Shown one piece after another: positions 12,919-31,605 of a DNA stretch of 64,000 nucleotides. Numbering within the stretch: the first letter of the stretch is position 1; each line of letters opens with the position of its first letter. The stretch spans positions 82,132 to 146,131 of the forward strand of contig DATDQB010000013.1 of the NCBI GenBank assembly GCA_035292445.1. Direction: 5' to 3'. Made by a program: the position numbers and the translations under genes. This DNA comes from Candidatus Omnitrophota bacterium (GTDB taxonomy: Bacteria; Omnitrophota; Gorgyraeia; Zapsychrales; Zapsychraceae). The notes beneath the pieces were generated by a model, which did not search any database, was not told where the DNA came from, and worked only from the letters and a program-made list of their open reading frames with translations.

Positions 12919-12999
12919 ATTCTTTCTTAGTATATGCTATGCCCTGCCCCGACGCGCTATTACATAGCGGTCGGGGTCCCGACCGAGGTGAAACCGAGC

Positions 13000-14172: not shown

Positions 14173-14250
14173 GGTGGGTGTAGCGCAGCTGGTTAGCGCA
14201 CAAGATTGTGGATCTTGTGGTCGCGGGTTCGAATCCCGTCACCCACCCCA
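14173..14250 (+). tRNA. tRNA-His (anticodon GTG) with genomically encoded G-1 and 3' CCA
   Basis: G-1, then acceptor GTGGGTG/CACCCAC, discriminator C, CCA encoded. D-arm GCGC-AGCTGGTTA-GCGC. Anticodon stem CAAGA/TCTTG with loop TTGTGGA (anticodon GTG). T-arm GCGGG-TTCGAAT-CCCGT with one G-U pair. Confidence 0.85.
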
Positions 14251-14588: not shown

Positions 14589-17500
14589 TTATCCTTTAAA
14601 TATCGCTATCCTATCCAACACATCCCTCAGCGTGAACTTGCGCATCGAAAGCGCTGGCGCTTTCTCTTCCTCATCCTGTGCCTGCTCGATCGGTTCATCC
14701 GGAATAAAATCTGCGATTCCCAACAGCATCGGCATATTATTGATCGGCGCGATGTTAATGATCACGGGAATAAACCCGTCAATATGAATATTTTGCAGCG
14801 GTTGCATCTCAACCGGCAGCGGAATGCCGCGGCCGTCGCGCTTAATTTGCAGGTTAAGAAGCGCCGGGTTCAAATCAATACCGCCGACCGGCGTTGTTTC
14901 TTGAGCTGTTACAGCTCTATCAATGCCGGCCGATGATGAGACGTCCTCTTCCTCTGAAGGAAAGTTGACAATTAATTGACCTTCCAAAAATTCACGGATA
15001 ATCCTTCTAAATTTAATCTCCCGCACCTTAAAATCTCTTGCCGAGTTTATGTGGGTTGCTCTTGTCAGATCTCCTTTTGAATAAAGATCCGGCGCATCTT
15101 CGCTTAGCGGGGTGCTCAATTCTTTACCATCAAGATAATGGATCAACCGGGCGAGGAGCCCGACGCGATCGCCAAATAATTCTTCATCGCCCATTTCTTC
15201 CAGTAAATCCTCGGCGATCTCCCAAGCTTCCGCAGGCGTCAGCATCGCGCCGTCGCCCTGCTCCGTCATGGCGGCATCGATGCTGACAATTGTATGATCG
15301 ACTTCCACCGGGAAGATCTCGGCTTTCAGTTCATTTCCAACGTTATAAATCTTAATCACCACGGATGTTTGGCCGCCTTCCGTTGCCTGCGTTCCAGTTT
15401 GACCAAAAACCCAATCATTGGCTATGACAGTAAAAATACCAACAACATCGCCTTTTACATCTTGTTCCGTAAAAAATTTTTGCCCATTAAGAATTGCTCC
15501 GGCATCACCATAGCTTTCCCGTATAACACGAAGCTCGGATGCCTCAGCTAACTTAAAATTATAGCGTTCGGAAAGGTCAGGCAATTCTTCTCCAGCAGCG
15601 TTTTTATTCATTTTGGCGTTATAAACCCGAACCCCGGCCACAGCGCCGATATATTTTGCGGCACCGGCAATCGCTAAGTTCATAAATCCTTCGGCCGAAC
15701 CGCCAACGGTTATAACTGTTTTGTGGACACCATAAGAACGCCCTGTTGCGGCCTCATAAAGAGCCGGTGTTAACGTCGCCCTTAACCCATGTGCAACAGT
15801 TCCATCCTGAAGCGTCTTTTGAACAACGCTCACACCTTGTATTCCATATTCTTGCTTAACCTCTTCAATGGCTCGTACAAAAGCAGTTTCTCGTTTACGG
15901 TTCATCACGATAATCTCTTCCTGAACTTGCGAGAGTTCTTGTCTACGAATAGCGGCCAAAAACTTAAGGTACGCCAAAATGCCTTCTTTAGGGTGAGCCG
16001 CATATAATTCAGGATCGTAAAGATGGTATTTTTCCCCACCCACTTCAACAGCGGCTGCCCTTAACGCGTCGGCATCTTCACCCACATTCGTAATAAACTG
16101 ATGAACGTATCCATCGGGGACGTTTCCTAAATCGCGCACACCGCGCCCGACAACAATATCGCTATTGGCTCCCGCCTCATTTTCCGGAGCTTCCTCCAAG
16201 GATCTGTTGCCAGAATTGGTGACAAACTGATTAGTCCCTTCGACCACGTCGATAATGGCATCAAGAATCGGATAATACCGGCCATTTTCGCTTAGGTAGA
16301 ATTCATCGCCACGGTCAATGGCCGCTTTAATGGCTTCGACTTCGTGTTGGATCAAGTTAGGCATAATGACTTCATTGGATTTTAAGCTTTCCGCCACTTC
16401 ATCCCGGCCGAAACCTTCGGAAACACGAACCATCATAATGATACCCAGTTCTTTGATAGTCCGTTCAAAAATCCTTTTGGCGAAACCATCGACCACATCT
16501 GTAATGGCCGTTTGCATTCTTTTTAATTCATCTTTGGCAATGGTTCCTTCTTTCCCCAAAACCATTATTGCTACTTCCGCAAATTCGCCCCTTTGCGTCG
16601 TTTGATGAAGTTGAGTAAATAACAATGCGATCTGCGTCCGCTGCTCAGATGTATCAGAGACACTTTTAACAACATCTAAAATTTTTTGATAAGCACCTCG
16701 TAAACCAAGAGCGGTTAATTTGGCGGCCGTGTGTGTTGTCAATATAACAGGCAACTCATCACGAATGGCGCGTAATCTCGTTGCTTCTTCTTTGTTTGGC
16801 TGTGCCGCCATCGCGGCGTCAAAATCCCTAATCATCTGCCCTAACTGTTCATTATCAATGTTGACCTGGACCATCCGGCCATAAACATCAACACGGGCAA
16901 CGAAGGCCTCAACGCCGATGCGCTCAATTAACGCATCGTACTCATCCATGACACCTAAGCTGGCTGCCTGGATCCTGAAGGAGGCGCGGACGAACTCGTT
17001 CTGCGCCGCTTGTTCGTTAACAAAATCCCCATTAAGGACCGTTAAAGCGGTCTCCTTGGAAGCCCTAGAGAAGGAAGCAGCATAGCGCCAAGGCGCTCCC
17101 ACCCGCTTCGCTTCTTTCACAATGGCATTTAAATTGCGGGCCGCCTGATCAGCGGTCTGCCCCCCTGATAAAAAGACAATCGTGCCTAATTCCGGAGGAA
17201 GACTATCCATATGCACGGCAACAGTCGCTCTAGCCACTTCTTCGGGTGTATCTTTAGGCGCTTTATCACCCGAGGTGACCATGCTCACTTTAATCGCGCT
17301 GCCTTTCAAATCAACCCCTAGGCGGCTGGCGGCTTCCGTATAAACCTTAAGAATACGCCTGTTCGCCTCTGCGCTGGCTTCAATATCATGAGAGCCTTTA
17401 ATCAACACCTCTGGCTCAGGCGTTGGGACCCTTCCTAATAACTGAACATCTAAAACATGTTGGGCCAACATCTCCATATTCGCTTCGATATTACGTTGCG

Positions 17501-20500
17501 TCGGAAGACCAGCATCTGTATCAATCGTAAATGTTTGACGGAATTTATCGGCATGAGATGTGGGTATCATATCCATAATCGCACGAAGGTTATCGATCCC
17601 CAAACCTTTTGGTTTAGAGAGCTTCTCGGGATCAAGGCCTTCACGGCTTGGCCGAGGGCTCTGTGTATCATCATCGATACCCCGATCAGTTTTATGGATA
17701 ATGCTTATCCCTCTTCCTTCCACGTGGGTGGCTAAAAGAGGCTTGTCTTCATCATCCACATAGCTGACGGATTCATCCTGGACAATAATGCCGCCAAAGA
17801 CATACTGGATGCCTGGGGCGGTATAGAACATCCTTCTCATTCTTTCGCGAAGAAGATAGTTCGCGCCGTCGACTTTATCAGCATCCGGATAAGCCTTTGC
17901 ATCCACTATCTTAAAACCGTATCTTTTAAGAAGTGCATTGCCTGTTGATGGAGACCCATCCGAAGCAAAGTAGTTACGGCCTCGCCCCGTCAGGCTTTGT
18001 ACTCTTTCACGAAGAAGGGTTTTTTGGACATCCGTCAACATCGCGTGATCTTCGTCTTCCGGGGGGTATTCCGAAATTGGTCTAGGCGGTAACACCTGGG
18101 TAGCGCCTGTGTCTAAATCATCTACTTCTTCCTGTTCTCCATCGACTACGGTGCCTACAGGGTTGGGGTCGCGGTTAATTTCATCCATTACTTGGAGCAA
18201 GCCTAAACCTAAACCTGAATTGACAATCAATGCTATAACGTCATCTTCACTACTCTCTCCCAATGAAAGAAGTCGATCATAGGCATCCTTGACCATGATT
18301 CTTCCAGCTAATAAATCTTCCAGAATTCGGTCAGCCGCCATCATGGCGCTGTCGCCAGAAAGCAATTGCTCACCCTGACCAATAAGACGATTGATTCGAG
18401 CTCTTTTTTCATTAAGCTCGGATGATCCCAATTCATCCGATAATTGGCCTATCTCCAAAAGAATCGCCCTTTGTCCAGCTCTCAATATATAGAGTTCGTT
18501 CTCGATGTCTTGTGCCGGTTCGGGATAAAAGGTTTCAGGTGCAGCGAAGCGCTCCTCAATGTGATCAAGGCTGACATCCTCCAAGGGAAAAGCGACCTCA
18601 TCTGCTCCTTCCAAAGGCCTGATGCGACTGATCGCTCTCTTGAGCAACCCTTCTATCGTATGTCGGTCGGTTGTAAGTTGGGCTATCTGTTGCGCAATTG
18701 AACTTCTTTCCTCTGGTCCATCTTTGAGGCTACGCTCCCTGGTCCTTAATTGTGTAATACGGGTTCTTACGCCTATCAAGGAAATTCGCAATTTGTTGAT
18801 AAGATCCGCCAATTCATTAACAGACAGATCATGTTGTAACGCCGTTTCTTTTTCTGCAATCTGTCTATGTATTTCTCCCATTAAATCATCTTTGGCTTTT
18901 AATCCGGCCCGGTCTTTCATGGTATCGCCTTTACCACCCTCAAATGATATGGCGGCAGTTTCCCCTATAGCAACCGATGTCATGAATTCCAGCCCTCTGT
19001 TGCCGGCAAAAACCTGCGGGTTGATCGACATGCCGCTTTTTTGCTTACGGCCGATCTCTTGCCACTGGGCCAGCCCGTCCATACCGTCCCTTAAATATCC
19101 CCCTTTACCGTCAGTCCCTTGCAAAAACTGCATGGTAGCGGCGTGTAGGAATGTGGATCCGCCGTAGGTGATAAAATTGAACTGGGAATATTTTCCCTGT
19201 TCCGGCAGAAATGCCTTTCTTTCTTCCGGCGTCATTAGACGACTCCCATCCTCGGTTTTGGCAAGCGGCCAATAAAAGGACGGCGACGTGTTATTTGCTT
19301 TTATTCTGGTTGTCGCATCCAGTAAACCCACGGCATCATCATGAGCTAGGTCTAACTCTTGAAGCGCTTTTAAGGCATATGAATAACTGTCCGGATCAAC
19401 TGGCCGGTTATTGTGATATGTTTCGATAATTTTCTCTACCTGAGTTTTAATTCGATCTCGAAAAGCCTGATCAAATCTTTCAAGAATTTCGTCATACCAG
19501 CCTTCGGCAAACAATAAGCGTCTGGCTTCCGCATCCAGGGCGGTTGACCACTGCTTGACTTCGCCAATATGCGGATGGTGCTGCTCAAACCAAGAAATGT
19601 CCGTATATGGCAAGGCTGATTTGGAACGGGCAATGGCCATTTCCATGCCGCTATTGATCATCCAAATGGTACGGCTTCTCTTCTCTACCGAACGGGTGAG
19701 CTGGAAATCCCATAATACGTTGATCGTGCCTGAGAAAGCTTCAGGCGCTTCATCCACCAACTGGATTTGACTGCTGTCGATGAGGCGAATTCCGATCTCT
19801 CTGGCCTTTGCTTTTACCAGATCGAAAAATCTTACGTCTCTTTCATAAGGTATAGCCGCAACAAAAGCTCTCCATTCTTCAACCGTCATACCAATCTTAT
19901 CCTGATTTGCGGCGATAGTTCTTGCCACAATTTCATCGATCGTCAAAAGATTGGCCATGATCTTCCATTGATTATGGACCTTTTGTAATTCGGAAGCCTC
20001 TAGCCCTGATTGATTGGCAGCCGTGATAACATCTTGATAGGTTTGGACCCTACCTTTGCTATCGTGAATCAAAGGTATATACTTCTGCCAGTCAGATCTA
20101 AACCGGGTGATTGTTGCCGCTATCTTTTCAGCCGGCATTTTTTTGGCAACCAGGTCTTTTTCCAATGCTTTGACTGCTTCTTCCAGACGTTCAGCTTCAT
20201 CGGCCTCAGTAACACCAAGAATAAATTTCTGATCACGTCCGTCATCATGGCCCGTGATCCATTCGGCCGATTCGGCATCGGTCCGGGCAACGATCAACGT
20301 ATTAAGACCCATGCGGTCAAACTCAAAACGGGCCTCAAGAAGTGTTTTGATCCAATGATCCGTACTATCGAGGACTTTGCCGCTCATATGCCCGCACATT
20401 TTACATCCGTGAGCTTGATCTTCAATGTGGACTGCGGCGATATGTGTTTCTTCCTCGCCCATTGACAGAACCCTTCGTGCCATCTCCTGGACCTTTAAAT

Positions 20501-23500
20501 GTCCTTCGTCAAAATCAACAAAGATAGGCACGTAGAAATCAACCGGTCTAACAAGAGAACGTTGTTCAGGCGTCATTTGGGCCCTGGCGATCTCCTGATA
20601 AATGGCATGCCATGTATTTAGCTTTGAGATCCTGGCAGCCAGTATACCCAAATAATCATATTGGTCCCGGGCACGGTCTCCTTTGCCTCTGAGCATTTGT
20701 GCATCCCATCCACCCAGATAATAGCCTTCAATATGCTTAAACAAATTCTGTTGCAGAAGAGCGAATATAATGCCGGATCTTTCTTTGAAAGCGTCATCGA
20801 TCCTTTCGTAATATTCCTGCTTTACATTCTCCATCATGGAGAACGAATCCTGAATAACACCCGTTTCAGCATCGATGAAGCCTAATGATGCTAAATGATT
20901 ATACAGGGCATCAACTTCATAATCATAAGCCACATCTAATAATTTTGTCTTTGTGATAGGTTCGGCTTGAAGAATTTCGGATACAGCCATGGCTTCGGCC
21001 ATCAATTCATTGCTAGGGCCGAAGGTATCGATGGATTTTACATCCCTGAAATACCTTCGCAGCTTGCCATTAAATTTCTCGGCCATATGGTTGGCGATCG
21101 ACCATGTTCTTAAAACAGGGCCTTGCGCAGCCGCGACTTTTTCTGCGCTCCAAACACGCTTGATCCAGCGGCCTTCGGCTCTTTGCTGGTTCCATCGCTC
21201 CTGCATGATTTGCGCTCGTTCTTCTAAAGAAGCCACCATCGCCGCATCGCCGCCCATGCGGGCAACCATGCCGCCTTCAGGTCCGGGTATATTCATCTGG
21301 GCAACTAACGCTTCATATCGCGCCAACACTTCAGGGCTAAGCGCCCCTGTGAAACGCTCTTTCCCCACCTCGATCATAGCCCACACGTCTCTTAATCGGC
21401 TTGAAACTGTCCCTTTCACATCTCCAAAGGTCGGCACCTCGTTATAGCGTTCTTCAGGATCTCTGGAACGGGCCCATTCCTCATCATTCTTGTCTTTTAT
21501 TTTTTCCCATCTTTTAATTAATCCCGCCAATTCATCTGGAAGTCTGGCAAGTTGCTCGATAGCCGATTTTCTATCCACACGATTGAGCTTATCGACACTC
21601 ACCTCTTTGCCTAAAAGAGCCGCTAAAAACGCTAATTCTTTCTCAGCCCTATCAAGATCCGCTTCTACTTGCGCTTCATACATCCCGCCTGGAAGCGCTC
21701 TGTCATATTGCGCTTTAAATCCTGCGACGCTCTGTAATAACCAATTAAAATACTCCTCGGCAACGGCCCTAGCATCCACCGCCATCGCCGCGTCACCTTC
21801 TTTGGGAGTTCCCTTCTGATCTCTCTCCCTCAATGACGCTATTATACCTCTCATATGTTTTTCAGAAGCAGCGGGTTCTTCCGGTACTAACTCACCACTT
21901 AAAGGATCTCCCCTGACAAACCTGGGTCCAAGTTCCGGCGCCCTATCTTTATCGCTGGCCGCCATCGCCGCGGCTGAAGTTAGTGAAGTTATCCTTTCCC
22001 GTATCTCTCGAATGGCCAGTTCGGTTTGTTCCTTTTCACCTTCCAGCCCCTCGACAATGACGACCTGATCTTGATATTCCACTAATTCATTTCCAATTTG
22101 TCCTAAACGCTTTTCCAGTTCTGCGATGGCACCTCGAAGCTCATCCGCCGTTCGGTATCCTTCCTCGCTGGTAAGAACGGCTTCTAAAATCCTGACCGCC
22201 CCCATCGCATTATCAATGCTGTCATCCCATTGCGCTCTTGTCCGATCAATTGTTTCCTCAAGCACTCTTTCCTCTTCCAATAAAGACGGTAAATCACCAA
22301 TGTCTCCATCTTCATATTTTGCTTTTTCTATTCTTTCTCTAACTTGAGCAAGTCGATCAATCGCGCGAAACCATTCTTTTTGGGCAGACTCATCCCCCAC
22401 CATCGCCGCGTCGATTGGTTCTTGAGAAGTCCCGCCTCTTTTTCCAAGGTGACCCATTTTTTTACGTTGAGTAAAAAGTATATCCCCTGCCGCGGCGTCA
22501 ACGGCCCGAAACATATTATCAAATGTTTCCCCATAAGCTAATTCGGCGATACGATGAGGATCCATCCGTAATTTATCCAATCTTTCAAATCCAACACTGT
22601 CCAAATTTTGTAGAATACTCGATTCAGGATAGTAGCTTCTTCTTCGCGAGTCATCGAAATCGGCTATTTTACTCAAAATATAACTGTTAGAAGCCTCTTC
22701 ACTTTGTAATCGATCTCTGAATCGGTATAAGACCCTCCTTCGCTCTGGCTCCATTAAACTTAAATAATCTAACGCCCTTGTAACTTTATCTCTTAACTGT
22801 AAATCATCAAACTGGGAAACAAAACGTTTTGCATTCTTCGGAAATTGATTACTAATACGCATAGCCCGAAAGTCTAGGGAAATCATACCTTCAATGACCG
22901 AATAGTCCTCAATCCTATCCAAAAGGATCCGTGTTGAGAAATAATCAGACAGGATCATAGCTTCAAAGATATCGGCATCCCTGTATCTTTCTGTTACCGC
23001 CATCGCCGCGTCGGTTTCCGCCACAGAGACAACCGTCTTTTCAACAAGTCTTTCTAAAGTCTCCGTAACTTCTTTAATTTTGCGTTGCAGGGGTCCTATT
23101 TTATCTTGATCATAAGCGGCAAGGGTTCTGAAGCTCAAAACGTCACCGGAACTGCGAGGTATTAAGATTCGGTAAAAGGTCTGAATCGCTTCTTGGGCTG
23201 TCGTTAAAGGTACATTTTGACCGCCTGAATCTCGAATGGCCCTTTGAAGCGTTTGAATCATCTCCAACAACCCAACCCCTTCTTCTCTGATTCTAGCGTC
23301 TTCAAAAGCTACTACCATTTCTTTAAGTTCTTCCAATTGCGCCGCCACCATCGCCGCGTCACCTTCTTTGGGAGTTCCCTTCTGATCTCTCTCCCTCAAT
23401 GACGCTATCATGTCTGTCATATGTTCTATAGAAGCAGGTTCTTCAGGTACTATCTCACCAGTTAAAGAATCTCTCCTGGCAACCCTGGGCCCCAATTCCG

Positions 23501-26500
23501 GCGCCCTGTCATCTGACTTTCCAGCCGCCATCGCCGTGTCGATATAATTCCCATCACGTAGCGCATTGGCTATTTTTTCAAGCTGCTCTTCAATAATTGA
23601 ATTTGACGCCTCCTCGCCTTGAGGATTAAAAGGAGCATACCCCGCAGCAACCGTTTGTAATCTTTCTTGCAAATTCAAAAGTTCTGCTCTCGTCAACACG
23701 CCGCTTTCCACTCGAATCTCTTCTTCCGGCGTCAACATCGCCGCATCGGCAAGCTGGAACGGAGCAAATAAAATTCGCCGATCATACAGGTTGTCCGCAT
23801 TATCGTGGATAGCAAAAAATCGTTTCAACTTTCTTTTTACATCAATTAATGTTCTGTCATCAAGGGTTGTGTTAAAAACAATGGATTCATGAAGCACCAT
23901 ATTCTTTGAAGTGATAATGCTTTTATTGATTTCTCTGGCAATGGCGATATCTTCATCGCTAAATCCCGATTCCATATATCTGGCCTGGGTATTTCTAGCG
24001 ACTTCATCCATAATTTGGCTTAAATATTCCCATGTAATGATTGTGCCTGTATCTGGGCCTTCCTGCACCTTGGCCCCCGATTTAATCAACGTCCACAGCC
24101 AATATTGGGCTTTCTTGGCCGTAGCTAAATCAAACATGGTTCTTCCGCCATTATGCAAGTTGTCTACGGCAACAGCCGCTCCTTGTTTTCGATAACCTAG
24201 CGTATATGTCAGCAGTTCATATAAGTTCTTATATATTTCAGCTCTCGCTATATTTCCCTCTGGAACATGTAATAAATCGGCATATAACCCTTCATTATAA
24301 ACAGGCGGCGCCACTTCCATTTCTTCAACATCGGCTCGGAAGATTTCGTTTTCTTTGGGAATGGCGATTGGTGTCGCTGCCCAAGCTTGAAGTTTGCCTT
24401 GTTTGCGTTCATCTATTTTGTCACCTATAAATCCTGTGGTAGCTATTTCATCCGCGGCCGGGTCCATCGGCGCTCCATCTGGATATCTGCGTGAGGTCAT
24501 TCCCGTCCACATGCCGCCTTCAGGATGAACACCGCGTTTTTTACTGGCCGATAAATTAAGGCCTGTATAAGGTCTAAACGGTTTGTCTTTCATGCCTATT
24601 TTATCCAATCCCGGCCATACGCGTTTCTTCAAAAACCAAGCGAGTCGTATCGCTGAAGCACCCCAATCCCAACGTCCATCATTCGAAAACTTGATATGAT
24701 GGCGGCCTGCCCAGAACATTAATTCCAGCATTAATGTCGCCTCTTCGACTTCATGCATAAAAATAAGATTGATCTCTTCTTTAAGACCTAAAAACTCCTT
24801 TGTTTCAATGGCCGTCTCCACAAACAATTTTACTTCTTCCCAATGCTCCAATTTCGGCACAACAATATCAATGCCTTGTCTCGGATCGGCTTCTAAAGCC
24901 TCGAAATTAGGTTCAACATAATACGCCAAGTCTCTCATCATCATTGATACCGGCATACCCTTATAGGATTCATGCCGTGACCACAATTGCAATCCGCTTG
25001 GCCTTTTTGTTACTGTCGGCCAATATTTCCTGGGTAATACTCTATAAATTTTATTTTTGTCTCCATGTTTTACGCTCTTGAGTCTTCCGTTAATAATATC
25101 GGCACCGATTTGGTGTTCGGCAAACCTTTTGTCACTATCTATTCCAGCGGCATCTTCATCGTCACCAAAGATTCTTACAGGTCTCATCGCTTCTATATAT
25201 TCAGCTATCGCTGGATTACCCTCAATAATTGCTATGATTTCTTCATCAGTTTTTTCCTTTAAACTTATTCCAAACTTCTTTTCCACTTCATCCAATACAT
25301 TTGACCCAAACGCACTCAAGGCAAAAAATAGATTCCATGGACCTGACAATATGCCGCCTGCTTTTGTTAACCTTTCTGGCGCTTCGTCGACTTTCCAATC
25401 CCCTTCTAATATTTCACGCACGGTCAAAGTATTTCCATACGCATCGCTCACCTTATCATCCATATTAGGAATATAAGAATTTTCTCCGCGCTCAGCCGCG
25501 TTTATTCTTTCCCCGCGTTTCTTTAATAACTCGAGCTGCCGCTCGCCGAACTTCTCCATTAAATGCGCTATTAATGCCTGGCTTCGCGGATTTATGATTT
25601 TTCCACTTCCGACATCTCCTTCAAATTCGCTTAAATCTACGGCCTGTCCTTTTTGATCCAACACCTCTCTAATATCTAAATCCTCTACGCCCGCCACCAT
25701 CGCCGCATCGCTGGTCGTCAGCAGCCGGATGTGATCAGGCTTATCTGAATAGTCATCGAATAGTAATGCCTCATTGCGGATGAACGGAACAATATAGGCG
25801 TGAGACGATTGGAACTGCACTTTCGGTTTAACGAGCATGATCTGGCCTTGATTCGCGGGGACATCTTCCCGGCGGAACACGGGCAGCTTATCAAAGTCAG
25901 GATGGACAACAATTCTTGATGCCAGAGAGCGCGCGACCCTTTCAATGATATCCTGGTATCCTTTTAAACGTTTATAGTCATCCGATATGGTTGGTATCCT
26001 GCCCAGAACAACATCTAATATGCTCCAGTAAATTTGATAATCAATAAGGTCTTGAGCTTCTCTGTAAACGGAATTAAACCTACCATTGACTTGACTGATG
26101 GCAGAGTGAACTCTTCGACGGACTATGGTAATGGTATTTAAATGGCCTTCCGTAATGGGAGTGATCCCGTGGCGTTCCGCCACCTCCAATAACTCCTTTA
26201 GATCATCCGCATTCGGCGGTTCTTCTCGCCATATTTCCGGCCTGCGCGCAAGACGCTGCTGGCGCTCAGCATCCGTTGCGGTGGACGGATCTGTAATGAC
26301 CGCCTGGTCGGCCAACCGGCTGCTAGCCTCATCGACCGCCAATTGGGCGCTGTCACCGGCAATTGTTTCTAATAAATCAACATCCGTATCAAAAAAACGG
26401 CCCGTGGGGGAAGAAGCATTGATAACCTGCTGTTGGACAGCCTCAGGAAATTGGCCTAAATCGCCTTCTATTTCGGCTACCAACATCGCCATGTCCCTGC

Positions 26501-27587
26501 CATCAACGCCCCCTGAGAAATATTTACGCGGGATGATGTCTTTTGTCGCCGGGTCATAGTCTTCCCTAATAAAGTTATAGACGCCTTTCTTGAAGGCATC
26601 GAGGTATTGCTCATAGATCTTATTCTTGGCGTCCTTATCTTCAATATCAATGCCGCGGATCTTGTTTTTGTCCACGTAAACCTGGCCTAAAAGAGAATTT
26701 TTCAGGTTCATCTTGTACCACGTCGCCAAGATCATGGAACTGTAGATCTGGCGTAAACTGGCAAACGTCTTGCCTTCATTGACTTCCTTTTCGATCTCGG
26801 GGATAACAACATCCTTAAGAATCTGGGATTGGATGGAGCTCATTTCAGTCGTCAGTCGTCGGTCGTCAGTCGTCAGTAACTGATGACTGACGTCTGATGT
26901 CTGATGACTTAATGCCAAATAGTCTTCCTCCAGCATGACCTTCAAATGGCTTTCAACGACAAAAGCGGTGCCGTTATTTTCATACACCAGCGCGCGGTCA
27001 GGGACGATCCATACCTTATTAAAGGTATTCATCGGGATGTTGGTCGTGCCGAATTTCTCGTAGGCCTTATCTTTGACGCGTTGCCAGAATTCTTTGCCCA
27101 GCTCCTGATCGGGGTGGATCAAAGACGCCGTCAATTGTTTGAGGATATAATCCTGCGCTAAAAGGTCGCGGCCCATTTCGGTCGTACCAAAAGCTTGGGG
27201 AATGATACGGTCTTTCTCATAAGGGGAAAGATTTACCCAGAGTTCTTTTTCGGGAACGGTCAGGGAAGCCAAGAAGTATTTAACTAATCTATTCGCTTCT
27301 TCGCGAAGCTCTTCGCCCTCGAGGCTCGTATGGCCAGTATCAACAATAAAATTAAAATGTAGGGGATTAACGGGATCGATCGTGATGCCTTTGACCATGG
27401 CCGGCATAAAGCCAGGGCTTGGGGAAACCATCACCCCCGGAGCCGGTAAATTAAGATATGTGGGTACGCCTTGGGCGTAAACGGATGCAGGCGGCGTGAC
27501 AGAGCTAAAGATAAAGGTAAAGGCGATAAAAGCGGATAAACCTTTGTGGAATCGGGTATTTCTTCTTCGCTCGAGAAAGCTTATCAT
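14589..27587 (-). CDS. Giant multi-module secreted protein, paralog C (4332 aa): signal peptide, conserved N-module, unknown modules, malate synthase-like module, repeated linker modules, isocitrate lyase module, unknown and coiled-coil region, class I fructose-bisphosphate aldolase module, possible GlpX-like module, conserved C-module.
   Basis: A 13 kb uninterrupted ORF with AGGGGGA upstream of the ATG at 27587 and signal peptide MISFLERRRNTRFHKGLSAFIAFTFIFSSVTPPASVYAQ. Malate synthase motif: HHIKFSNDGRWDWGASAIRLAW. ICL signature: HIEDQAHGCKMCGHMSGKVL plus LIVARTDAESAEWITG and YYLGGWDAQ. Class I FBA motifs: GRGRNYFASDGSPSTG, LKGSAIKVSMVTSGD (Schiff-base Lys context) and IVFLSGGQTADQAARNLNAIVKEAKRVGAPWRYAASFSRA. 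The C-terminus is VGGIDLNPALLNLQIKRDGRGIPLP...GFIPVIINIAPINNMPMLLGI. Confidence 0.85.
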   Translation of the reverse strand: MISFLERRRNTRFHKGLSAFIAFTFIFSSVTPPASVYAQGVPTYLNLPAPGVMVSPSPGFMPAMVKGITIDPVNPLHFNFIVDTGHTSLEGEELREEANRLVKYFLASLTVPEKELWVNLSPYEKDRIIPQAFGTTEMGRDLLAQDYILKQLTASLIHPDQELGKEFWQRVKDKAYEKFGTTNIPMNTFNKVWIVPDRALVYENNGTAFVVESHLKVMLEEDYLALSHQTSDVSHQLLTTDDRRLTTEMSSIQSQILKDVVIPEIEKEVNEGKTFASLRQIYSSMILATWYKMNLKNSLLGQVYVDKNKIRGIDIEDKDAKNKIYEQYLDAFKKGVYNFIREDYDPATKDIIPRKYFSGGVDGRDMAMLVAEIEGDLGQFPEAVQQQVINASSPTGRFFDTDVDLLETIAGDSAQLAVDEASSRLADQAVITDPSTATDAERQQRLARRPEIWREEPPNADDLKELLEVAERHGITPITEGHLNTITIVRRRVHSAISQVNGRFNSVYREAQDLIDYQIYWSILDVVLGRIPTISDDYKRLKGYQDIIERVARSLASRIVVHPDFDKLPVFRREDVPANQGQIMLVKPKVQFQSSHAYIVPFIRNEALLFDDYSDKPDHIRLLTTSDAAMVAGVEDLDIREVLDQKGQAVDLSEFEGDVGSGKIINPRSQALIAHLMEKFGERQLELLKKRGERINAAERGENSYIPNMDDKVSDAYGNTLTVREILEGDWKVDEAPERLTKAGGILSGPWNLFFALSAFGSNVLDEVEKKFGISLKEKTDEEIIAIIEGNPAIAEYIEAMRPVRIFGDDEDAAGIDSDKRFAEHQIGADIINGRLKSVKHGDKNKIYRVLPRKYWPTVTKRPSGLQLWSRHESYKGMPVSMMMRDLAYYVEPNFEALEADPRQGIDIVVPKLEHWEEVKLFVETAIETKEFLGLKEEINLIFMHEVEEATLMLELMFWAGRHHIKFSNDGRWDWGASAIRLAWFLKKRVWPGLDKIGMKDKPFRPYTGLNLSASKKRGVHPEGGMWTGMTSRRYPDGAPMDPAADEIATTGFIGDKIDERKQGKLQAWAATPIAIPKENEIFRADVEEMEVAPPVYNEGLYADLLHVPEGNIARAEIYKNLYELLTYTLGYRKQGAAVAVDNLHNGGRTMFDLATAKKAQYWLWTLIKSGAKVQEGPDTGTIITWEYLSQIMDEVARNTQARYMESGFSDEDIAIAREINKSIITSKNMVLHESIVFNTTLDDRTLIDVKRKLKRFFAIHDNADNLYDRRILFAPFQLADAAMLTPEEEIRVESGVLTRAELLNLQERLQTVAAGYAPFNPQGEEASNSIIEEQLEKIANALRDGNYIDTAMAAGKSDDRAPELGPRVARRDSLTGEIVPEEPASIEHMTDMIASLRERDQKGTPKEGDAAMVAAQLEELKEMVVAFEDARIREEGVGLLEMIQTLQRAIRDSGGQNVPLTTAQEAIQTFYRILIPRSSGDVLSFRTLAAYDQDKIGPLQRKIKEVTETLERLVEKTVVSVAETDAAMAVTERYRDADIFEAMILSDYFSTRILLDRIEDYSVIEGMISLDFRAMRISNQFPKNAKRFVSQFDDLQLRDKVTRALDYLSLMEPERRRVLYRFRDRLQSEEASNSYILSKIADFDDSRRRSYYPESSILQNLDSVGFERLDKLRMDPHRIAELAYGETFDNMFRAVDAAAGDILFTQRKKMGHLGKRGGTSQEPIDAAMVGDESAQKEWFRAIDRLAQVRERIEKAKYEDGDIGDLPSLLEEERVLEETIDRTRAQWDDSIDNAMGAVRILEAVLTSEEGYRTADELRGAIAELEKRLGQIGNELVEYQDQVVIVEGLEGEKEQTELAIREIRERITSLTSAAAMAASDKDRAPELGPRFVRGDPLSGELVPEEPAASEKHMRGIIASLRERDQKGTPKEGDAAMAVDARAVAEEYFNWLLQSVAGFKAQYDRALPGGMYEAQVEADLDRAEKELAFLAALLGKEVSVDKLNRVDRKSAIEQLARLPDELAGLIKRWEKIKDKNDEEWARSRDPEERYNEVPTFGDVKGTVSSRLRDVWAMIEVGKERFTGALSPEVLARYEALVAQMNIPGPEGGMVARMGGDAAMVASLEERAQIMQERWNQQRAEGRWIKRVWSAEKVAAAQGPVLRTWSIANHMAEKFNGKLRRYFRDVKSIDTFGPSNELMAEAMAVSEILQAEPITKTKLLDVAYDYEVDALYNHLASLGFIDAETGVIQDSFSMMENVKQEYYERIDDAFKERSGIIFALLQQNLFKHIEGYYLGGWDAQMLRGKGDRARDQYDYLGILAARISKLNTWHAIYQEIARAQMTPEQRSLVRPVDFYVPIFVDFDEGHLKVQEMARRVLSMGEEETHIAAVHIEDQAHGCKMCGHMSGKVLDSTDHWIKTLLEARFEFDRMGLNTLIVARTDAESAEWITGHDDGRDQKFILGVTEADEAERLEEAVKALEKDLVAKKMPAEKIAATITRFRSDWQKYIPLIHDSKGRVQTYQDVITAANQSGLEASELQKVHNQWKIMANLLTIDEIVARTIAANQDKIGMTVEEWRAFVAAIPYERDVRFFDLVKAKAREIGIRLIDSSQIQLVDEAPEAFSGTINVLWDFQLTRSVEKRSRTIWMINSGMEMAIARSKSALPYTDISWFEQHHPHIGEVKQWSTALDAEARRLLFAEGWYDEILERFDQAFRDRIKTQVEKIIETYHNNRPVDPDSYSYALKALQELDLAHDDAVGLLDATTRIKANNTSPSFYWPLAKTEDGSRLMTPEERKAFLPEQGKYSQFNFITYGGSTFLHAATMQFLQGTDGKGGYLRDGMDGLAQWQEIGRKQKSGMSINPQVFAGNRGLEFMTSVAIGETAAISFEGGKGDTMKDRAGLKAKDDLMGEIHRQIAEKETALQHDLSVNELADLINKLRISLIGVRTRITQLRTRERSLKDGPEERSSIAQQIAQLTTDRHTIEGLLKRAISRIRPLEGADEVAFPLEDVSLDHIEERFAAPETFYPEPAQDIENELYILRAGQRAILLEIGQLSDELGSSELNEKRARINRLIGQGEQLLSGDSAMMAADRILEDLLAGRIMVKDAYDRLLSLGESSEDDVIALIVNSGLGLGLLQVMDEINRDPNPVGTVVDGEQEEVDDLDTGATQVLPPRPISEYPPEDEDHAMLTDVQKTLLRERVQSLTGRGRNYFASDGSPSTGNALLKRYGFKIVDAKAYPDADKVDGANYLLRERMRRMFYTAPGIQYVFGGIIVQDESVSYVDDEDKPLLATHVEGRGISIIHKTDRGIDDDTQSPRPSREGLDPEKLSKPKGLGIDNLRAIMDMIPTSHADKFRQTFTIDTDAGLPTQRNIEANMEMLAQHVLDVQLLGRVPTPEPEVLIKGSHDIEASAEANRRILKVYTEAASRLGVDLKGSAIKVSMVTSGDKAPKDTPEEVARATVAVHMDSLPPELGTIVFLSGGQTADQAARNLNAIVKEAKRVGAPWRYAASFSRASKETALTVLNGDFVNEQAAQNEFVRASFRIQAASLGVMDEYDALIERIGVEAFVARVDVYGRMVQVNIDNEQLGQMIRDFDAAMAAQPNKEEATRLRAIRDELPVILTTHTAAKLTALGLRGAYQKILDVVKSVSDTSEQRTQIALLFTQLHQTTQRGEFAEVAIMVLGKEGTIAKDELKRMQTAITDVVDGFAKRIFERTIKELGIIMMVRVSEGFGRDEVAESLKSNEVIMPNLIQHEVEAIKAAIDRGDEFYLSENGRYYPILDAIIDVVEGTNQFVTNSGNRSLEEAPENEAGANSDIVVGRGVRDLGNVPDGYVHQFITNVGEDADALRAAAVEVGGEKYHLYDPELYAAHPKEGILAYLKFLAAIRRQELSQVQEEIIVMNRKRETAFVRAIEEVKQEYGIQGVSVVQKTLQDGTVAHGLRATLTPALYEAATGRSYGVHKTVITVGGSAEGFMNLAIAGAAKYIGAVAGVRVYNAKMNKNAAGEELPDLSERYNFKLAEASELRVIRESYGDAGAILNGQKFFTEQDVKGDVVGIFTVIANDWVFGQTGTQATEGGQTSVVIKIYNVGNELKAEIFPVEVDHTIVSIDAAMTEQGDGAMLTPAEAWEIAEDLLEEMGDEELFGDRVGLLARLIHYLDGKELSTPLSEDAPDLYSKGDLTRATHINSARDFKVREIKFRRIIREFLEGQLIVNFPSEEEDVSSSAGIDRAVTAQETTPVGGIDLNPALLNLQIKRDGRGIPLPVEMQPLQNIHIDGFIPVIINIAPINNMPMLLGIADFIPDEPIEQAQDEEEKAPALSMRKFTLRDVLDRIAIFKG
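21780..21985 (-). repeat. Internal ~200-nt direct repeat within giant gene C, copy 1; the other copy is at 23340..23550 (~88% identical). Each encodes a duplicated ~65-aa linker segment.
   Basis: CCATCGCCGCGTCACCTTCTTTGGGAGTTCCCTTCTGATCTCTCTCCCTCAATGACGCTAT... occurs at both loci. The protein copies are AAMAASDKDRAPELGPRFVRGDPLSGELVPEEPAASEKHMRGIIASLRERDQKGTPKEGDAAMAVD and TAMAAGKSDDRAPELGPRVARRDSLTGEIVPEEPASIEHMTDMIASLRERDQKGTPKEGDAAMVAA. Confidence 0.8.
26845..26925 (-). repeat. Hairpin-forming short tandem repeat (TCAGTCGTCAG/CTGATGTCTGATG units) inside the N-module of gene C; a homologous insertion sits at 4050..4125 in gene A.
   Basis: Gene C has CAGTCGTCAGTCGTCGGTCGTCAGTCGTCAGTAACTGATGACTGACGTCTGATGTCTGATGACT. 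Gene A has GTCATCAGTCGTCGGTCATCAGTCGTCAG...CTGAAGACTGATGTCTGATGTCTGATGACTGAT. Both are imperfect inverted repeats built from 8-11-nt units. They encode SDVSHQLLTTDDRRLTTEMSS and SDISLQSTHENLTTDDRRLMTQ, which are absent from paralogs B and D at the same position. Confidence 0.7.
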
Positions 27588-30800: not shown

Positions 30801-31268
30801 AGATGCGGTGAGCTGCTTGAGAATATAATCCTGGGCTAAAAGGTCGCGCCCCATTTCTGTATACCCGAGATTTCTGGGAATAATCCGATCTTCTTCATAG
30901 GGAGAAAGATTAACCCATAACTCCTCTGAAGGAACGGTAAGAGCTGCCAGAAAATATTTGACAAGCTTATCAGCCTCTTCTTTCAGGGCATCTCCATCAA
31001 TATTCACATCACCCGTATCGATAATAAAATCGAATTTTAATGCATCGTCGGAGTTGACGGTTATCGCCTTAATAAGAGGTGGCGTGAATATTGGACTTTG
31101 GGTAAGCAATGTCCCCGGCGTGGGTAGCTGCAGGGCGCTGGAACCGACGGTTTGAGCGGAACTAAGATAGGGAGTTAAAACAAGGTGGCAGGAGAAACAA
31201 AGCACTGTTAAACAGCTTAAAAATCGAAAGCCTGGTTTGCTTCTTTTTCTTCGGGATAAAACTTCCAT
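27900..31268 (-). CDS. Giant-family paralog D (1122 aa), the minimal member: signal peptide, conserved N-module, ~700-aa low-complexity Ala/Gln/Ser/Thr-rich region, conserved C-module.
   Basis: GAGGA/GGTGGA lies upstream of the ATG at 31268. Signal peptide: MEVLSRRKRSKPGFRFLSCLTVLCFSCHLVLTPYLSSAQ. The N-module shares TVPSEELWVNLSPYEEDRIIP, TEMGRDLLAQDYILKQLTASLMYPE and PEIEKEVNEGENFANLRQIYNAMILATWYK with the other paralogs. The C-terminus is GGIDLNMAMLNLVVQREGNGVQMT...GGFEPVITRVERDL. Confidence 0.8.
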   Translation of the reverse strand: MEVLSRRKRSKPGFRFLSCLTVLCFSCHLVLTPYLSSAQTVGSSALQLPTPGTLLTQSPIFTPPLIKAITVNSDDALKFDFIIDTGDVNIDGDALKEEADKLVKYFLAALTVPSEELWVNLSPYEEDRIIPRNLGYTEMGRDLLAQDYILKQLTASLMYPENQLGKEFWQKVQSKANELYGASDIPMNTFNKIWIVPDQAVVLERGNNAIVLDSHLKVMLEEDYLGLKENMDNKKFGTDRMQEDDVKKINAIASNVVREVIVPEIEKEVNEGENFANLRQIYNAMILATWYKQNLKESFLSQVYVDKNKIEGVDTQDRAVKEKIFDKYLETFQQGAYEYTTKEFDLETFSLVPKRYYSGGFAGDRAAQVVRAGTTQVSAEVPLAQAGLDEAMMTSVNRLLERATTNPERVARVSFALGNREPNAAQDMGITLPNMAAVLRTNAPSFNAELGRSLGQQGVPQEEISLVVGIVGDTLRRAPRSTTQEIMSVLSSRGISQQTLPTVEKSLPSLAQTVFERSTPQPVLVDVASGIAANQQLAGNAYSASVANRLIGEGEIEPAQARSVAATTAQVITRLRTQSPEAFSTPIQYEAAITAGLEREGIDRPTAVTAARIASDLDTMREVADQTQGRYQFNMQISVMPVLYAVNQPRMQSIVTSALQTDNFNEDEIAAVTPVMQNLREYGSLDQLEQKITEGLRIAQPQMPEDSVRNLASRVATKEVIDRINNLAGQAEEFKGVDSHLASSSTRFALVGDQRTNVINVAEALNRTTPLNPSEAQPAAQALVNVLAKPELLGDRDGLRSTYLTELRSLNVAEPLAQRMAGIVIDNSEGLSGRIYQAVAESSSAGDRMSYNPTLARVVVEAAMGQAFEDDYRDSLRAPEVSQFGLRFTSEEIQALPGQVAQLAERNPAALRSLSEFQAGLREVGAAPETAEKASNAFVVRQFGEVSSARQQSDTLLRLMPQNIANPQVFQDVFRPMAEQVMSASGIQSIDFEPIVTAFGDLARNNPQAFDGGEERLLSVLQQRPNISADSLARIREQRLISNMAQVIGRGMAQLDTGNRDSRGGIDLNMAMLNLVVQREGNGVQMTIAASTIENLNLGGFEPVITRVERDLNMQQELGLDR

Positions 31269-31514: not shown

Positions 31515-31605
31515 TTATATTTTTTGAATAGTGGCGCTTAGTATATCATTGGGTTTTGAAATTTGCAATTACTGTAAAATTACCCACTTATGCTATAATA
31601 CCGCC

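Follow-up and report, generated by a model that had tools for sequence, protein, structure and literature searches.

A D-x-A-M peptide at module junctions of giant multi-enzyme proteins of Omnitrophota, a candidate processing or recognition signal

Four adjoining giant genes and their family

The window, i.e., the whole stretch of 64,000 nucleotides of DNA that was analysed, comes from an uncultured Omnitrophota bacterium and contains four adjoining giant genes (A to D), all on the minus strand, in which whole metabolic enzymes are joined in series.

Gene A, 3..4793, minus strand: 5' part only, the ORF leaving the window at its start, at least 1,597 aa; signal peptide, N-domain, AprA-like methyltransferase module, pyruvate phosphate dikinase module
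Gene B, 5097..12530, minus strand: 2,477 aa; signal peptide, N-domain, UDP-glucose pyrophosphorylase, phosphoglucomutase-like module, two receiver domains, C-domain
Gene C, 14589..27587, minus strand: 4,332 aa; signal peptide and N-domain, followed by malate synthase, about eight small unannotated modules, isocitrate lyase, class I aldolase, an unannotated module of 510 aa and the C-domain
Gene D, 27900..31268, minus strand: 1,122 aa; signal peptide, N-domain, about 670 aa with no family match, C-domain

The 4,332-aa ORF of gene C is called in two independent ENA assemblies, and its locus is also found on a JGI contig, where the ORF leaves the contig end. Domain matches (Pfam or NCBIfam) identify the receiver, aldolase, malate synthase, isocitrate lyase, UDPGP and dikinase modules; the substrates of the cargo enzymes of the four proteins are cytoplasmic. 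The genes that adjoin the four giants in the window are housekeeping genes, and no immunity genes were seen there. A gene for an Rce1-like protease is located 10 kb away within the window; nothing ties this protease to the family.

The four proteins are members of an Omnitrophota-specific family that has no description in the literature searched and includes at least 8,387 protein clusters. The family layout consists of a signal peptide (of the Sec type, by inspection of the N-termini), a novel N-domain, a cargo array made up of whole proteins and, at the C-terminus, a conserved domain of ~70 aa; the architectures of relatives are shuffled. The terminal domains of the window proteins are as follows.

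N-domain of C, 26496..27470, minus strand: residues ~40-364, ending in ...PRKYFSGG; family-defining
N-domain of B, 11442-12413, minus strand
N-domain of A, 3723-4661, minus strand
N-domain of D, 30189-31151, minus strand
C-domain of C, 14700..14885, minus strand: GGIDLNP..LQIKRD..GIPLP..GFIPVIINIAP..LLLG
C-domain of B, 5166-5351, minus strand
C-domain of D, 27903-28079, minus strand

A search for a known fold or a sequence match of the N-domain found none, and the C-terminal 70-90 aa match no NCBIfam or Pfam model, including the sorting-domain models of the Por_Secre_tail type.

The D-x-A-M motif and its placement

The four proteins contain 25 strict D-x-A-M words (A 2, B 7, C 15, D 1), compared with ~1.5 expected from residue shuffles, so that the enrichment over shuffled controls proposed in the sequence-only reading is borne out, and more strongly than originally stated; in the remaining 22 ORFs of the window that are 200 aa or longer, there are two such words in 8,298 aa. 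Among 90 relatives, D.AM is the top gapped word (125 vs 12.8, z=31), and in an independent set of 140 it ranked fourth (207 vs 20.9, z=41). The six-residue form is seen 110 times vs 1.2. The density of the motif is 1.07 per 1,000 aa in family proteins vs 0.06 in other ORFs of the same loci; strict D.AM is absent from about half of the family members. The consensus is D-x-A-M-[LIVMT]-[ATSVG], and family-wide the only tolerated changes are N.AM (15x), D.SM (11x), D.AV (5.8x) and D.AQ (5.4x), with S.AM and T.AM barely enriched and E.AM (1-2x), D.GM (0.9x) and D.AL (1x) not or barely enriched. The flanks carry no information content, and a position-weight matrix built from the strict sites gave no gain over the regular expression. 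A preceding Gly, earlier described as frequent, does not hold family-wide (8% at position -1). The strict sites and their variants are listed below, with the residue number in brackets.

A DNAM, 3543..3554, minus strand: separates the N-domain region from the AprA-like module
A DSAM, 1224..1235, minus strand: 41 aa ahead of GGKG of the dikinase module (median 29 aa in free-standing dikinases)
B DRAM (364), 11430..11441, minus strand: 3 aa past the N-domain
B DRAM (516), 10974..10985, minus strand: ahead of the UDPGP module
B DRAM (1116), 9174..9185, minus strand: start of the phosphoglucomutase-like module; helix 1 begins here
B DAAM (1886), 6864..6875, minus strand: end of the phosphoglucomutase-like module; disordered segment, pLDDT <50
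B DSAM (2103), 6213..6224, minus strand
B DQAM (2115), 6177..6188, minus strand: 4 aa, then strand 1 of receiver domain 1
B DNAM (2256), 5754..5765, minus strand: 4 aa, then strand 1 of receiver domain 2
C DMAM (365), 26484..26495, minus strand: 4 aa past the N-domain
C DAAM (627), 25698..25709, minus strand: ahead of the malate synthase module
C DAAM (1281), 23736..23747, minus strand: behind the malate synthase module
C DTAM (1350), 23529..23540, minus strand: start of the first 56-aa mini-module
C DAAM (1410), 23349..23360, minus strand: end of the first mini-module
C DAAM (1526), 23001..23012, minus strand
C DAAM (1726), 22401..22412, minus strand
C DNAM (1792), 22203..22214, minus strand
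C AAAM (1872-1875), 21963..21974, minus strand: variant with no Asp; start of the second mini-module
C DAAM (1932), 21783..21794, minus strand: end of the second mini-module
C DAAM (2114), 21237..21248, minus strand: ahead of the isocitrate lyase module
C DSAM (3079), 18342..18353, minus strand: behind the isocitrate lyase module and its coiled-coil tail
C DHAM (3180), 18039..18050, minus strand: ahead of the class I aldolase; DLAILS in orthologue L018
C DAAM (3590), 16809..16820, minus strand: behind the aldolase; DAAMLS in L018
C DAAM (4104), 15267..15278, minus strand: first of a tandem pair
C DGAM (4112), 15243..15254, minus strand: second of the tandem pair
D DEAM (389), 30093..30104, minus strand: 28 aa past the N-domain
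B DQSMLA (432), 11220..11237, minus strand: Ala-to-Ser variant
B DGAQLA (2382), 5370..5387, minus strand: Met-to-Gln variant, 6 aa ahead of the C-domain
C DRAVTA (4223), 14904..14921, minus strand: Met-to-Val variant, 6 aa ahead of the C-domain; DQAMKA in L018
C DSAQLA (412), 26337..26354, minus strand: variant
C DQAVIT (427), 26292..26309, minus strand: variant
A DAAQLA, 3651..3668, minus strand: variant, 18 aa past the N-domain

The coordinates of the sites first read from the sequence were mostly right, although six strict sites had been missed (B 364, 516, 1116 and 2115; C 365 and 1281) and two words that had been counted, SAAAM (21963-21974) and VEAAM in gene D, have no Asp. The site placed near 11250 in gene B is DQSM, the Ala-to-Ser variant, rather than strict D-x-A-M.

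The proposal that the motif falls between domains and not within them is upheld: none of the 25 strict sites is inside a mapped domain core. Cores were taken to be the envelopes of Pfam and NCBIfam matches, the N- and C-domains and, for the phosphoglucomutase-like module, its core in the AlphaFold model. The mapped cores make up ~45% of the 9,528 residues, and the chance of 0/25 inside is 0.55^25, or ~4e-7 by hand arithmetic. In three independent proteins, the motif is likewise outside every mapped domain. Nearly every module in the four proteins has the motif ahead of it, and the 56-aa mini-modules of C are bracketed by it; it also comes in tandem pairs 8-12 aa apart. The motif also parts the cargo from the conserved N-terminal and C-terminal domains, being located 8-25 aa ahead of the C-domain in many family members and no more than 30 aa past the N-domain in 23 of 96. 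Its positions are kept between orthologues at 29-50% identity in which the flanks have diverged. An alignment of C to the L018 module begins exactly at C DAAM (3590). At the position aligned with B DRAM (516), orthologue L057 has DNATLG, and in L001 the counterpart is SSSPV, ~3 residues downstream in a loose alignment.

Comparison with free-standing proteins indicates that at least some modules are complete. The phosphoglucomutase-like module (775 aa) matches free-standing proteins from other phyla, 740-750 aa in size, over their full length, and the Met of B DRAM (1116) is at the position of the start Met of these homologues: the FGTxGxRG anchor lies 86 residues from the motif Met, compared with a median of 87 (mode 85-86) from the start Met in 68 free-standing homologues. 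In the receiver modules, the motif Met similarly sits where free-standing homologues begin. Not every module begins at its native Met, however, because comparison with family models suggests N-terminal extensions of ~20-90 aa for the aldolase, malate synthase, isocitrate lyase and UDPGP modules.

BLAST alignment endpoints were rejected as a test of module boundaries. The strong signal that they gave came mostly from C-terminal-domain alignments, and once these were removed, leaving 104 alignments, the enrichment of starts near the motif was gone for internal modules.

In the AlphaFold model, the phosphoglucomutase-like module is a single globular unit (pLDDT 92.5) preceded by a linker with pLDDT <50; helix 1 begins at the D of DRAM, and the downstream DAAM is in a segment with pLDDT <50. 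A helix begins at the motif D in two AlphaFold models, and the 30 aa upstream of the sites are more hydrophilic than average. The motif is thus predicted to sit at a linker-to-helix transition within an exposed linker. A typical junction would run from the end of the upstream module through a hydrophilic, poorly ordered linker of ~25-40 aa to D-x-A and then to a Met that is probably the first residue of the native downstream protein or close to it. The motif would be a short linear peptide signal at the N-terminal edge of every cargo module.

The same models raise the question of whether the motif is simply a passive structural feature, a helix N-cap or 'domain start' that ends the linker and nucleates the first helix with no dedicated reader. 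Asp, Asn and Ser are good N-cap residues, and Pro is favored in the first turn; D-x-A-M and the alternative junction word S-S-P-V described below both open with residues that favor the N-cap, at a predicted helix start, and D-to-N is the best tolerated change. However, capping leaves unexplained the near-invariant Ala and Met (compare D.GM and D.AL above) as well as the poor showing of S.AM and T.AM, and it does not account for the use of one junction word in unrelated modules of a genome and another in orthologous modules elsewhere. Furthermore, helices start everywhere, yet the other ORFs of the same loci are near background. We therefore consider this explanation improbable.

Selection on the peptide and genome-specific dialects

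The sequence-only reading had also described the motif as a repeated word at the DNA level. The sequence CATCGCCGC is indeed present in 13 copies vs 0.72 expected, with 10 of the 13 in genes B and C; this enrichment is a by-product of D-A-A-M being written in preferred codons. Across the family, the Ala of the motif is encoded by any of its four codons and the Asp by either of its two, and no nucleotide conservation was found outside the motif codons. An invariant DNA signal is thus not sustained, synonymous codons varying and nothing being conserved beyond the motif codons, and the same two observations rule out a dispersed DNA repeat or recombination site as the signal. Within the motif, the x, A and +1 codons show an excess of G at the third position (z=5 to 7), the variable x codon among them, and nucleotide selection specific to the motif was rejected as well, the excess of wobble G being equalled or exceeded at invariant words of the N- and C-domains.

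These data bear on the possibility that the motif is a scar of module assembly, i.e., of exchange at a short conserved sequence, with gene conversion keeping the junctions uniform, as might be envisaged by comparison with the VENN and DPxGL words of polymorphic toxins. Such a history is compatible with the uniformity of the junction word at the genome level, the 10 copies of GCGGCGATG in genes B and C, the G excess at the motif codons and the shuffled architectures of relatives. It is disfavored, and in our view quite improbable, because the constrained stretch is only 12-18 nt, with nothing outside the codons, a length insufficient for homologous exchange; the Asp is written with both of its codons and the Ala with all four; the synonymous bias is as strong or stronger at invariant residues of the N- and C-domains and hence is not junction-specific; the constraint tracks amino-acid classes (D/N, A/S, M/V/Q/I) and not nucleotides; and a scar would be expected to decay, yet the motif positions survive the divergence of orthologues.

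Another explanation at the level of expression is that the motif Met codons are internal translation starts, by which the modules are also made as separate cytoplasmic enzymes devoid of the signal peptide. The Met is nearly invariant in this genome, it coincides with the beginning of free-standing homologues in the phosphoglucomutase-like and receiver modules, and the substrates of the cargo enzymes are cytoplasmic. Nevertheless, words similar to the Shine-Dalgarno sequence precede 8% of motif Met codons vs 11% of other internal Met codons, with no upstream nucleotide signal; the motif lies in a G/C-rich context, unlike the genuine starts of the window, whose leaders are A/T-rich; selection on D-x-A acts on the amino acids; at orthologous or equivalent sites, Met is replaced by Q, I, T, L or V; the Val of D.AV shows no preference for GTG (0.21 vs 0.24); and the SSP[VIL] form found in other genomes includes no start codon. 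As a general mechanism, internal starts were rejected on account of the missing ribosome-binding signal and the non-start residues at equivalent sites, and we regard them as a very remote prospect. The varied D and A codons, the lack of a Shine-Dalgarno sequence and the orthologues with Q, I, T or V for Met all indicate selection on the peptide. The motif is a selected junction signal at the peptide level, neither a start codon nor a DNA repeat.

Other genomes have SSP[VIL] or D-x-A-Q at the same junctions in place of D-x-A-M. Ahead of the same module, the distance from the fourth residue to the same anchor is 47 aa for DRAM, 47 aa for SSPV, 49 aa for DGAQ and 49 aa for DRAQ. These dialects exclude each other (Fisher odds ratio 0.39, p=0.001; Spearman -0.32, p=9e-7), with one dialect per genome that is uniform across unrelated modules; some genomes (CAZCLW) show none of the three. 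The use of a single variant per genome implies that something reads the motif, and the N-domain does not co-vary with the dialect. Together, the genome-level dialects and the lack of such co-variation point to a trans-acting reader, probably encoded elsewhere in the genome, the specificity of which would differ by lineage, recognizing D-x-A-M here and S-S-P-[V/I/L] or D-x-A-Q elsewhere.

Possible action of a putative reader and comparison with known systems

The best explanation of these observations, which we hold tentatively and at a little less than an even chance, is that D-x-A-M is a junction signal read in trans, most likely by an endoprotease that cleaves the chain. Cleavage is a best guess as to the action of the reader, and the position of the scissile bond is likewise guessed: the cut might fall at or beside the fourth residue (A|M or M|L). 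The N-domain, the C-domain and every enzyme would then be freed individually, making the product a bacterial polyprotein. Self-cleavage is less likely than cutting in trans, since an autoproteolytic fold cannot be built from six residues whose flanks are uninformative. Searches against Pfam and NCBIfam found no protease domain in the four proteins, and clustering of 541 neighboring ORFs from 78 loci revealed no conserved protease neighbor, the clustered neighbors of family genes being further family members and housekeeping or signaling genes. Thus, of the suggestion that the motif is a processing signal or a docking element, the selected junction signal in exposed linkers ahead of modules stands, whereas cleavage at it is putative and these searches found no protease.

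Under the docking alternative, the hexapeptide would bind a chaperone, a machine for module-wise export or translocation, or a scaffold, and the protein would stay whole and uncleaved. The strictness of D, A and M, the exposure of the linkers, the genome-level dialects and the N-domain that does not follow them are all accommodated, as is the failure to find a protease in the four proteins or among conserved neighbors; the literature, moreover, treats very long multi-enzyme Omnitrophota proteins as single membrane-associated polypeptides. A docking element would, however, have no need to coincide with the native first Met of a module, to bracket 56-aa mini-modules or to recur in closely spaced tandem pairs, and is not obviously required directly ahead of the C-terminal domain and past the N-domain. 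Docking is accordingly unlikely in our estimate, though a real contender.

Two features of polyproteins are found here, namely several complete proteins in one ORF, judging by the domain matches and the full-length phosphoglucomutase-like module, and a conserved short peptide at the junctions. In viral polyproteins, with their 3C and 3C-like sites, one ORF yields several proteins and the junction peptide varies by lineage with the specificity of the protease. The Omnitrophota family resembles them in joining several complete proteins in one ORF, with a short conserved peptide at each junction and a lineage-specific sequence of that peptide; unlike them, it is cellular, chromosomal and multi-copy, has no protease in the ORF, carries a signal peptide, and its junction Met mimics a native start.

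In polymorphic toxins, a short peptide, VENN in CdiA or DPxGL in Rhs, marks the boundary between constant carrier and variable cargo, and the Rhs motif is associated with cleavage. The likeness lies in this short conserved peptide at the carrier/cargo boundary. However, polymorphic toxins carry one C-terminal toxin behind one junction and come with an immunity gene and with long stretches of conserved DNA upstream, whereas the present family has up to 17 junctions per protein (2-15 in the window), no immunity genes seen, a conserved domain instead of a variable toxin at the C-terminus, and no DNA conserved beyond the motif.

Cargo of the type IX system (e.g., gingipain polyproteins) combines a Sec signal peptide with multidomain cargo and a small C-terminal domain that is removed after export. 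The family shares this order of signal peptide, multidomain cargo and small conserved C-terminal domain, but its C-domain has no sorting-domain match, the phylum is different and the junction motif is unrelated.

MARTX toxins of Vibrio and relatives are, likewise, very large secreted proteins in which conserved N- and C-terminal regions surround a shuffled array of modules; the effector modules are parted by unstructured linkers with a processing site of the consensus small-Leu-small (PMC2900308). The array of the present family is also flanked by conserved terminal domains, with the motif in low-confidence linkers. In contrast to MARTX, no C80 domain (peptidase C80), RTX repeats or type I secretion signal was detected, a Sec-type signal peptide being present instead; the termini are the novel N-domain and the GGIDL C-domain rather than glycine-rich repeats of the RTX type; the motif spans six residues and is far more specific, and cleavage at it is putative; and the cargo consists of central-metabolism enzymes and regulators, not toxins.

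The closest counterparts within the phylum are the published 'multi-enzyme metabolic' giant proteins of Omnitrophota (Archaeovorins), most of which are predicted to have signal peptides or transmembrane helices and which carry the same cargo, namely dikinase, phosphoglucomutase, aldolase, receiver and GNAT domains. These published proteins, however, are at least 10,000 or 30,000 aa long, and the respective papers do not mention the N-domain family, the C-domain or the junction motif; no cleavage points are known from the published work on giant Omnitrophota proteins. Our search for giants of at least 10,000 aa via the dikinase module returned ordinary dikinases only. In the literature searched, which did not include the proteome paper of Kizina et al. 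2022, there is no prior description of the motif, of polyproteins or of cleavage in Omnitrophota.

Whether very large multi-enzyme Omnitrophota proteins act as a single chain or as cut pieces is an explicitly open question, and D-x-A-M, SSP[VIL] and D-x-A-Q are the first concrete candidate sites of cutting or recognition, in a family of thousands of protein clusters. The genome-specific dialects offer a handle for finding the reader via co-variation, and even if the proteins are not cleaved, the motif divides unannotated giant ORFs into modules for structure prediction. It is conceivable, albeit doubtful at present, that these proteins represent a phylum-wide polyprotein system in which thousands of Sec-targeted carriers would deliver complete enzymes and regulators of the cytoplasmic type, joined in series, and would be cut at a hexapeptide code by a dedicated trans protease with specificity drifting by lineage (D-x-A-M, S-S-P-V, D-x-A-Q), and that the same code may punctuate proteins of 10,000 to 147,000 aa. 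Such a system would amount to co-evolution of protease and site as in viruses, but within a bacterium, and its extension to the largest proteins would account for how such giants function. If cleavage does occur, the family would be a cellular counterpart of viral polyprotein processing, with metabolic enzymes placed behind a secretion signal, and would bear on how these bacteria, which are ultra-small and depend on a host, put metabolism to use within prey or beyond their own cytoplasm.

Architecture and cargo of the giant proteins

The neighboring genes A, B, C and D are arranged in tandem on the minus strand (window 3-31268). Each of the four proteins appears, by eye, to start with a Sec-type signal peptide (a basic stretch and a hydrophobic core, then ...A|Q), followed by a conserved domain of ~325 aa that ends in ...PRKYFSGG (N-domain). 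The opposite end of B, C and D is a conserved C-domain of ~70 aa with the pattern GGI[DN]LNP..LQIKRD..G.PLP..GF.PVIINI.P..LLLG, and the modules between the two ends, denoted cargo here, are cytoplasmic-type enzymes (Pfam and NCBIfam matches):

Gene A, minus strand, truncated at the window start, 1,597 aa or more: AprA-like methyltransferase and pyruvate phosphate dikinase
Gene B, minus strand, 2,477 aa, C-domain at 5166-5351: UDP-glucose pyrophosphorylase, phosphoglucomutase-like protein and two receiver domains
Gene C, minus strand, 4,332 aa, C-domain at 14700-14885: malate synthase, isocitrate lyase and class I fructose-bisphosphate aldolase
Gene D, minus strand, 1,122 aa, C-domain at 27903-28079: cargo with no match in Pfam or NCBIfam

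Two independent ENA assemblies each call the 4,332-aa ORF, and its locus is also present on a JGI contig, where the ORF leaves the contig end, so that it is not an assembly artefact. A search with the N-domain identifies more than 1,300 proteins, nearly all named ones from Candidatus Omnitrophica or Omnitrophota, and a profile search against 1.84 billion representatives yields 8,387 clusters; among the best 150 of these, the N-domain occupies residues 1 to ~370 in nearly all, and protein lengths range from 420 to 5,312 aa. A set of 78 related loci was collected from Omnitrophota genome bins. The C-domain, found in 108 of 145 independent family members, fits no family model and may serve for sorting or anchoring.

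The cargo of A, B and C might make up a single pathway that leads from C2 units to UDP-glucose (window 3-27587), with malate synthase, isocitrate lyase, pyruvate phosphate dikinase, class I aldolase, the phosphoglucomutase-like protein and UDP-glucose pyrophosphorylase; all these enzymes use cytoplasmic cofactors, yet each is located behind a Sec-type signal peptide. The cargo of three relatives (P0375, L014:3-9131 and P0348) includes the RNA polymerase alpha C-terminal domain, HTH_3 DNA-binding domains, a dCMP/MafB19-type deaminase and GNAT acetyltransferases, a repertoire that is odd for exported proteins and recalls effector arrays. The gaps between or beside the family genes contain tRNA-Arg(TCT) (12845-12919), a weak tRNA-like match (13007-13066), tRNA-His(GTG) (14174-14250) and tRNA-Pro(TGG) (31438-31514). 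Two AsmA/DUF748/YhdP-like genes of an envelope lipid-transport family are encoded on the plus strand, one between B and C (13087-14058) and one adjoining D (31531-34632), and a secretin gene of the type II/III secretion family lies ~10 kb from D (40049-41680, minus).

The D-x-A-M motif and its placement

The strict motif D-x-A-M occurs 25 times in the four proteins (2 in A, 7 in B, 15 in C and 1 in D), compared with ~1.5 expected from residue shuffles, and only twice in the 8,298 aa of the other 22 window ORFs. The enrichment proposed in the sequence-only reading is thereby borne out; most of the positions listed there are right as well, but six strict sites were missed and two of those counted lack the Asp. 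When gapped words of 3 and 4 letters are scanned without bias in 117.6 thousand aa of cargo from 90 relatives, D-x-A-M comes first (125 observed vs 12.8 expected, z=31), above the C-domain words; among 140 proteins of an independent set, it is fourth (207 vs 20.9, z=41), with at least one copy in 69, at least three in 28 and a maximum of 15. The density is 1.07 per 1,000 aa in the family vs 0.06 in other ORFs of the same loci, and the strict form is absent from about half of the family. The logo of 190 sites is D-x-A-M-[L 44%, I, V, T, M]-[A, T, S, V, G], all other positions being uninformative, and the six-residue form is found 110 times vs 1.2 expected. Substitution tolerance is narrow: N-x-A-M (15-fold), D-x-S-M (11-fold), D-x-A-V (5.8-fold) and D-x-A-Q (5.4-fold) are enriched, whereas E-x-A-M (1-2-fold), D-x-G-M (0.9-fold) and D-x-A-L (1-fold) stay close to expectation.

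The signal resides in the peptide. The DNA word CATCGCCGC that had been noticed as a repeat is indeed enriched (13 vs 0.72 expected), but a DNA repeat is rejected as the signal, and so is internal initiation at the motif Met, which appears extremely improbable: the Asp codons follow background usage, Ala is written with all four codons, no nucleotide information was found outside the motif codons, Shine-Dalgarno-like words precede 8% of the motifs vs 11% of other internal Met codons, the D-x-A-V sites show no GTG preference for Val, and the Met is replaced by I, T, L, V or Q at orthologous sites. The motif has an excess of third-position G in its x, A and +1 codons (z=5 to 7; window and L001-L078). 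Synonymous biases as strong or stronger are seen where the N- and C-domains are invariant, and we read the G excess as preferred codons at critical residues. Selection for accuracy does not account for the G bias at the variable x codon.

As the sequence-only reading suggested, the motif lies between domains: none of the 25 sites falls in a mapped domain core, although these cores cover ~45% of residues (chance ~4e-7 by our own arithmetic), and in three independent proteins rich in the motif, with RNA polymerase alpha C-terminal, dCMP deaminase, HTH and GNAT domains, all copies likewise lie outside the Pfam envelopes. A motif is located 3-28 aa past the N-domain in B, C and D and within 30 aa in 23 of 96 relatives; in many members, the motif or a Q/V/I/L variant also precedes the C-domain by 8-25 aa (DGAQLA in B; DRAVTA in C, with DQAMKA in the orthologue). 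The spacing between motifs is domain-sized (median 255 aa, interquartile range 140-513), and tandem pairs 8-12 aa apart are present as well. The modules of C that are bounded by the motif on both sides include:

23361-23528, minus strand, C residues 1354-1409: 56-aa mini-module
21795-21962, minus strand, C residues 1876-1931: paralogous 56-aa mini-module
15279-16808, minus strand, C residues 3594-4103: unannotated 510-aa module with no Pfam match

BLAST matched the mini-modules (..DRAPELGPR..SLRERDQKGTPKEG) to none of the other family proteins examined; the 510-aa module is 48% identical to another Omnitrophota protein, the gene C orthologue L018, where it is likewise motif-bounded at both ends. 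A BLAST endpoint test of internal modules was underpowered.

Motif-bounded modules as whole proteins

Free-standing proteins of 740-750 aa, found in many other phyla, match the 775-aa segment of B that lies between DRAM(1116) and DAAM(1886); identity is ~40%, and 92-94% of the query is covered. In 68 such homologues, the FGTxGxRG anchor lies at a median distance of 87 from the start Met (mode 85-86), and in B it lies 86 from the motif Met; the homologues end 51 aa past RxSGTS and the next motif in B begins 77 aa past it, which leaves a linker of ~26 aa. Both receiver modules open as native response regulators do, with Met, four residues and (I/V)L(L/V)V(E/D)D. For the dikinase, the distance from Met to GGKG is 41 aa vs a median of 29 in free-standing enzymes, and other modules show apparent extensions of ~20-90 aa when Pfam/NCBIfam model coordinates are compared.

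An AlphaFold model of the phosphoglucomutase-like module of B with its flanks (89-sequence alignment; pLDDT 92.5, pTM 0.91) places the upstream linker (residues 1-19) below 50, and helix 1 begins with the D of DRAM (residue 20-21); the DAAM on the downstream side lies in another segment below 50 (model residues 790-797), right before the next helix. The motif might thus be a passive helix-start element, an improbable reading. The 30 aa upstream of motif sites are more hydrophilic than the family average.

Dialects of the motif and a possible processing role

A second word, [A/S/V]-S-S-P-[V/I/L], is 41-fold enriched (e.g., in L005, L006, L001, P0121 and P0371) and takes the same junction positions in other genomes, as does a third variant, D-x-A-Q; in the window, SSP occurs only at C residues ~396-399 (INASSPTG). 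Across 231 proteins, SSP and D-x-A-M are anticorrelated (Fisher odds ratio 0.39, p=0.001; Spearman -0.32, p=9e-7). Ahead of the phosphoglucomutase-like module, four proteins carry DRAM, SSPV, DGAQ and DRAQ; measured to one shared Trp anchor, the fourth residue is 47, 47, 49 and 49 aa away. The dialect is a genome-level property: five genomes have D-x-A-M/SSP counts of 18/0, 24/1, 25/0, 27/1 and 14/0, two others have 1/9 and 0/4, proteins at L005 and L006 (loci of two further genomes) have 0/9 and 0/10, and three genomes use D-x-A-[VILQ]. The N-domain does not co-vary with dialect (best column discrimination 0.38; identity 58-63% within dialect groups vs 60% between).

Given that unrelated modules share a dialect within a genome and orthologous modules differ between genomes, the simplest reading is a trans-acting reader with drifted specificity. 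Junctions of a module-shuffling mechanism kept uniform through concerted evolution are a highly improbable source of this pattern, and a docking element that acts without cleavage is unlikely. We tentatively favor endoproteolytic processing, because the motif brackets complete proteins and mimics a native N-terminus, isolates both carrier domains from the cargo, sits in exposed linkers, and has a strictness like that of a protease site: in every dialect, the third residue is small and the fourth long and hydrophobic. The protease would be encoded elsewhere in the genome and would cut the family proteins at the motif; none for this motif was found in the four proteins, the N-domain, the window neighbors or the genes near family loci. 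An Rce1-like CPBP intramembrane protease fused to TPR repeats (41727-43037, minus, ~10 kb from D) is the sole peptidase among 14 window ORFs scanned, with nothing to tie it to the motif.

In its logic, the nearest known system is that of the MARTX toxins, in which conserved terminal regions flank an effector array and an internal C80 protease cuts small-Leu-small sites in unstructured linkers (PMC2900308); viral polyproteins are the other close analogue. The components that define either system are absent here. Published studies of Omnitrophota that describe multi-enzyme giant proteins leave open whether these are cleaved, with no cleavage points known, and mention neither the N-domain family nor any junction motif; searching the literature text for the motif turned up nothing relevant. 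If the motif is cleaved, the 56-aa mini-modules of gene C would be freed as small peptides.
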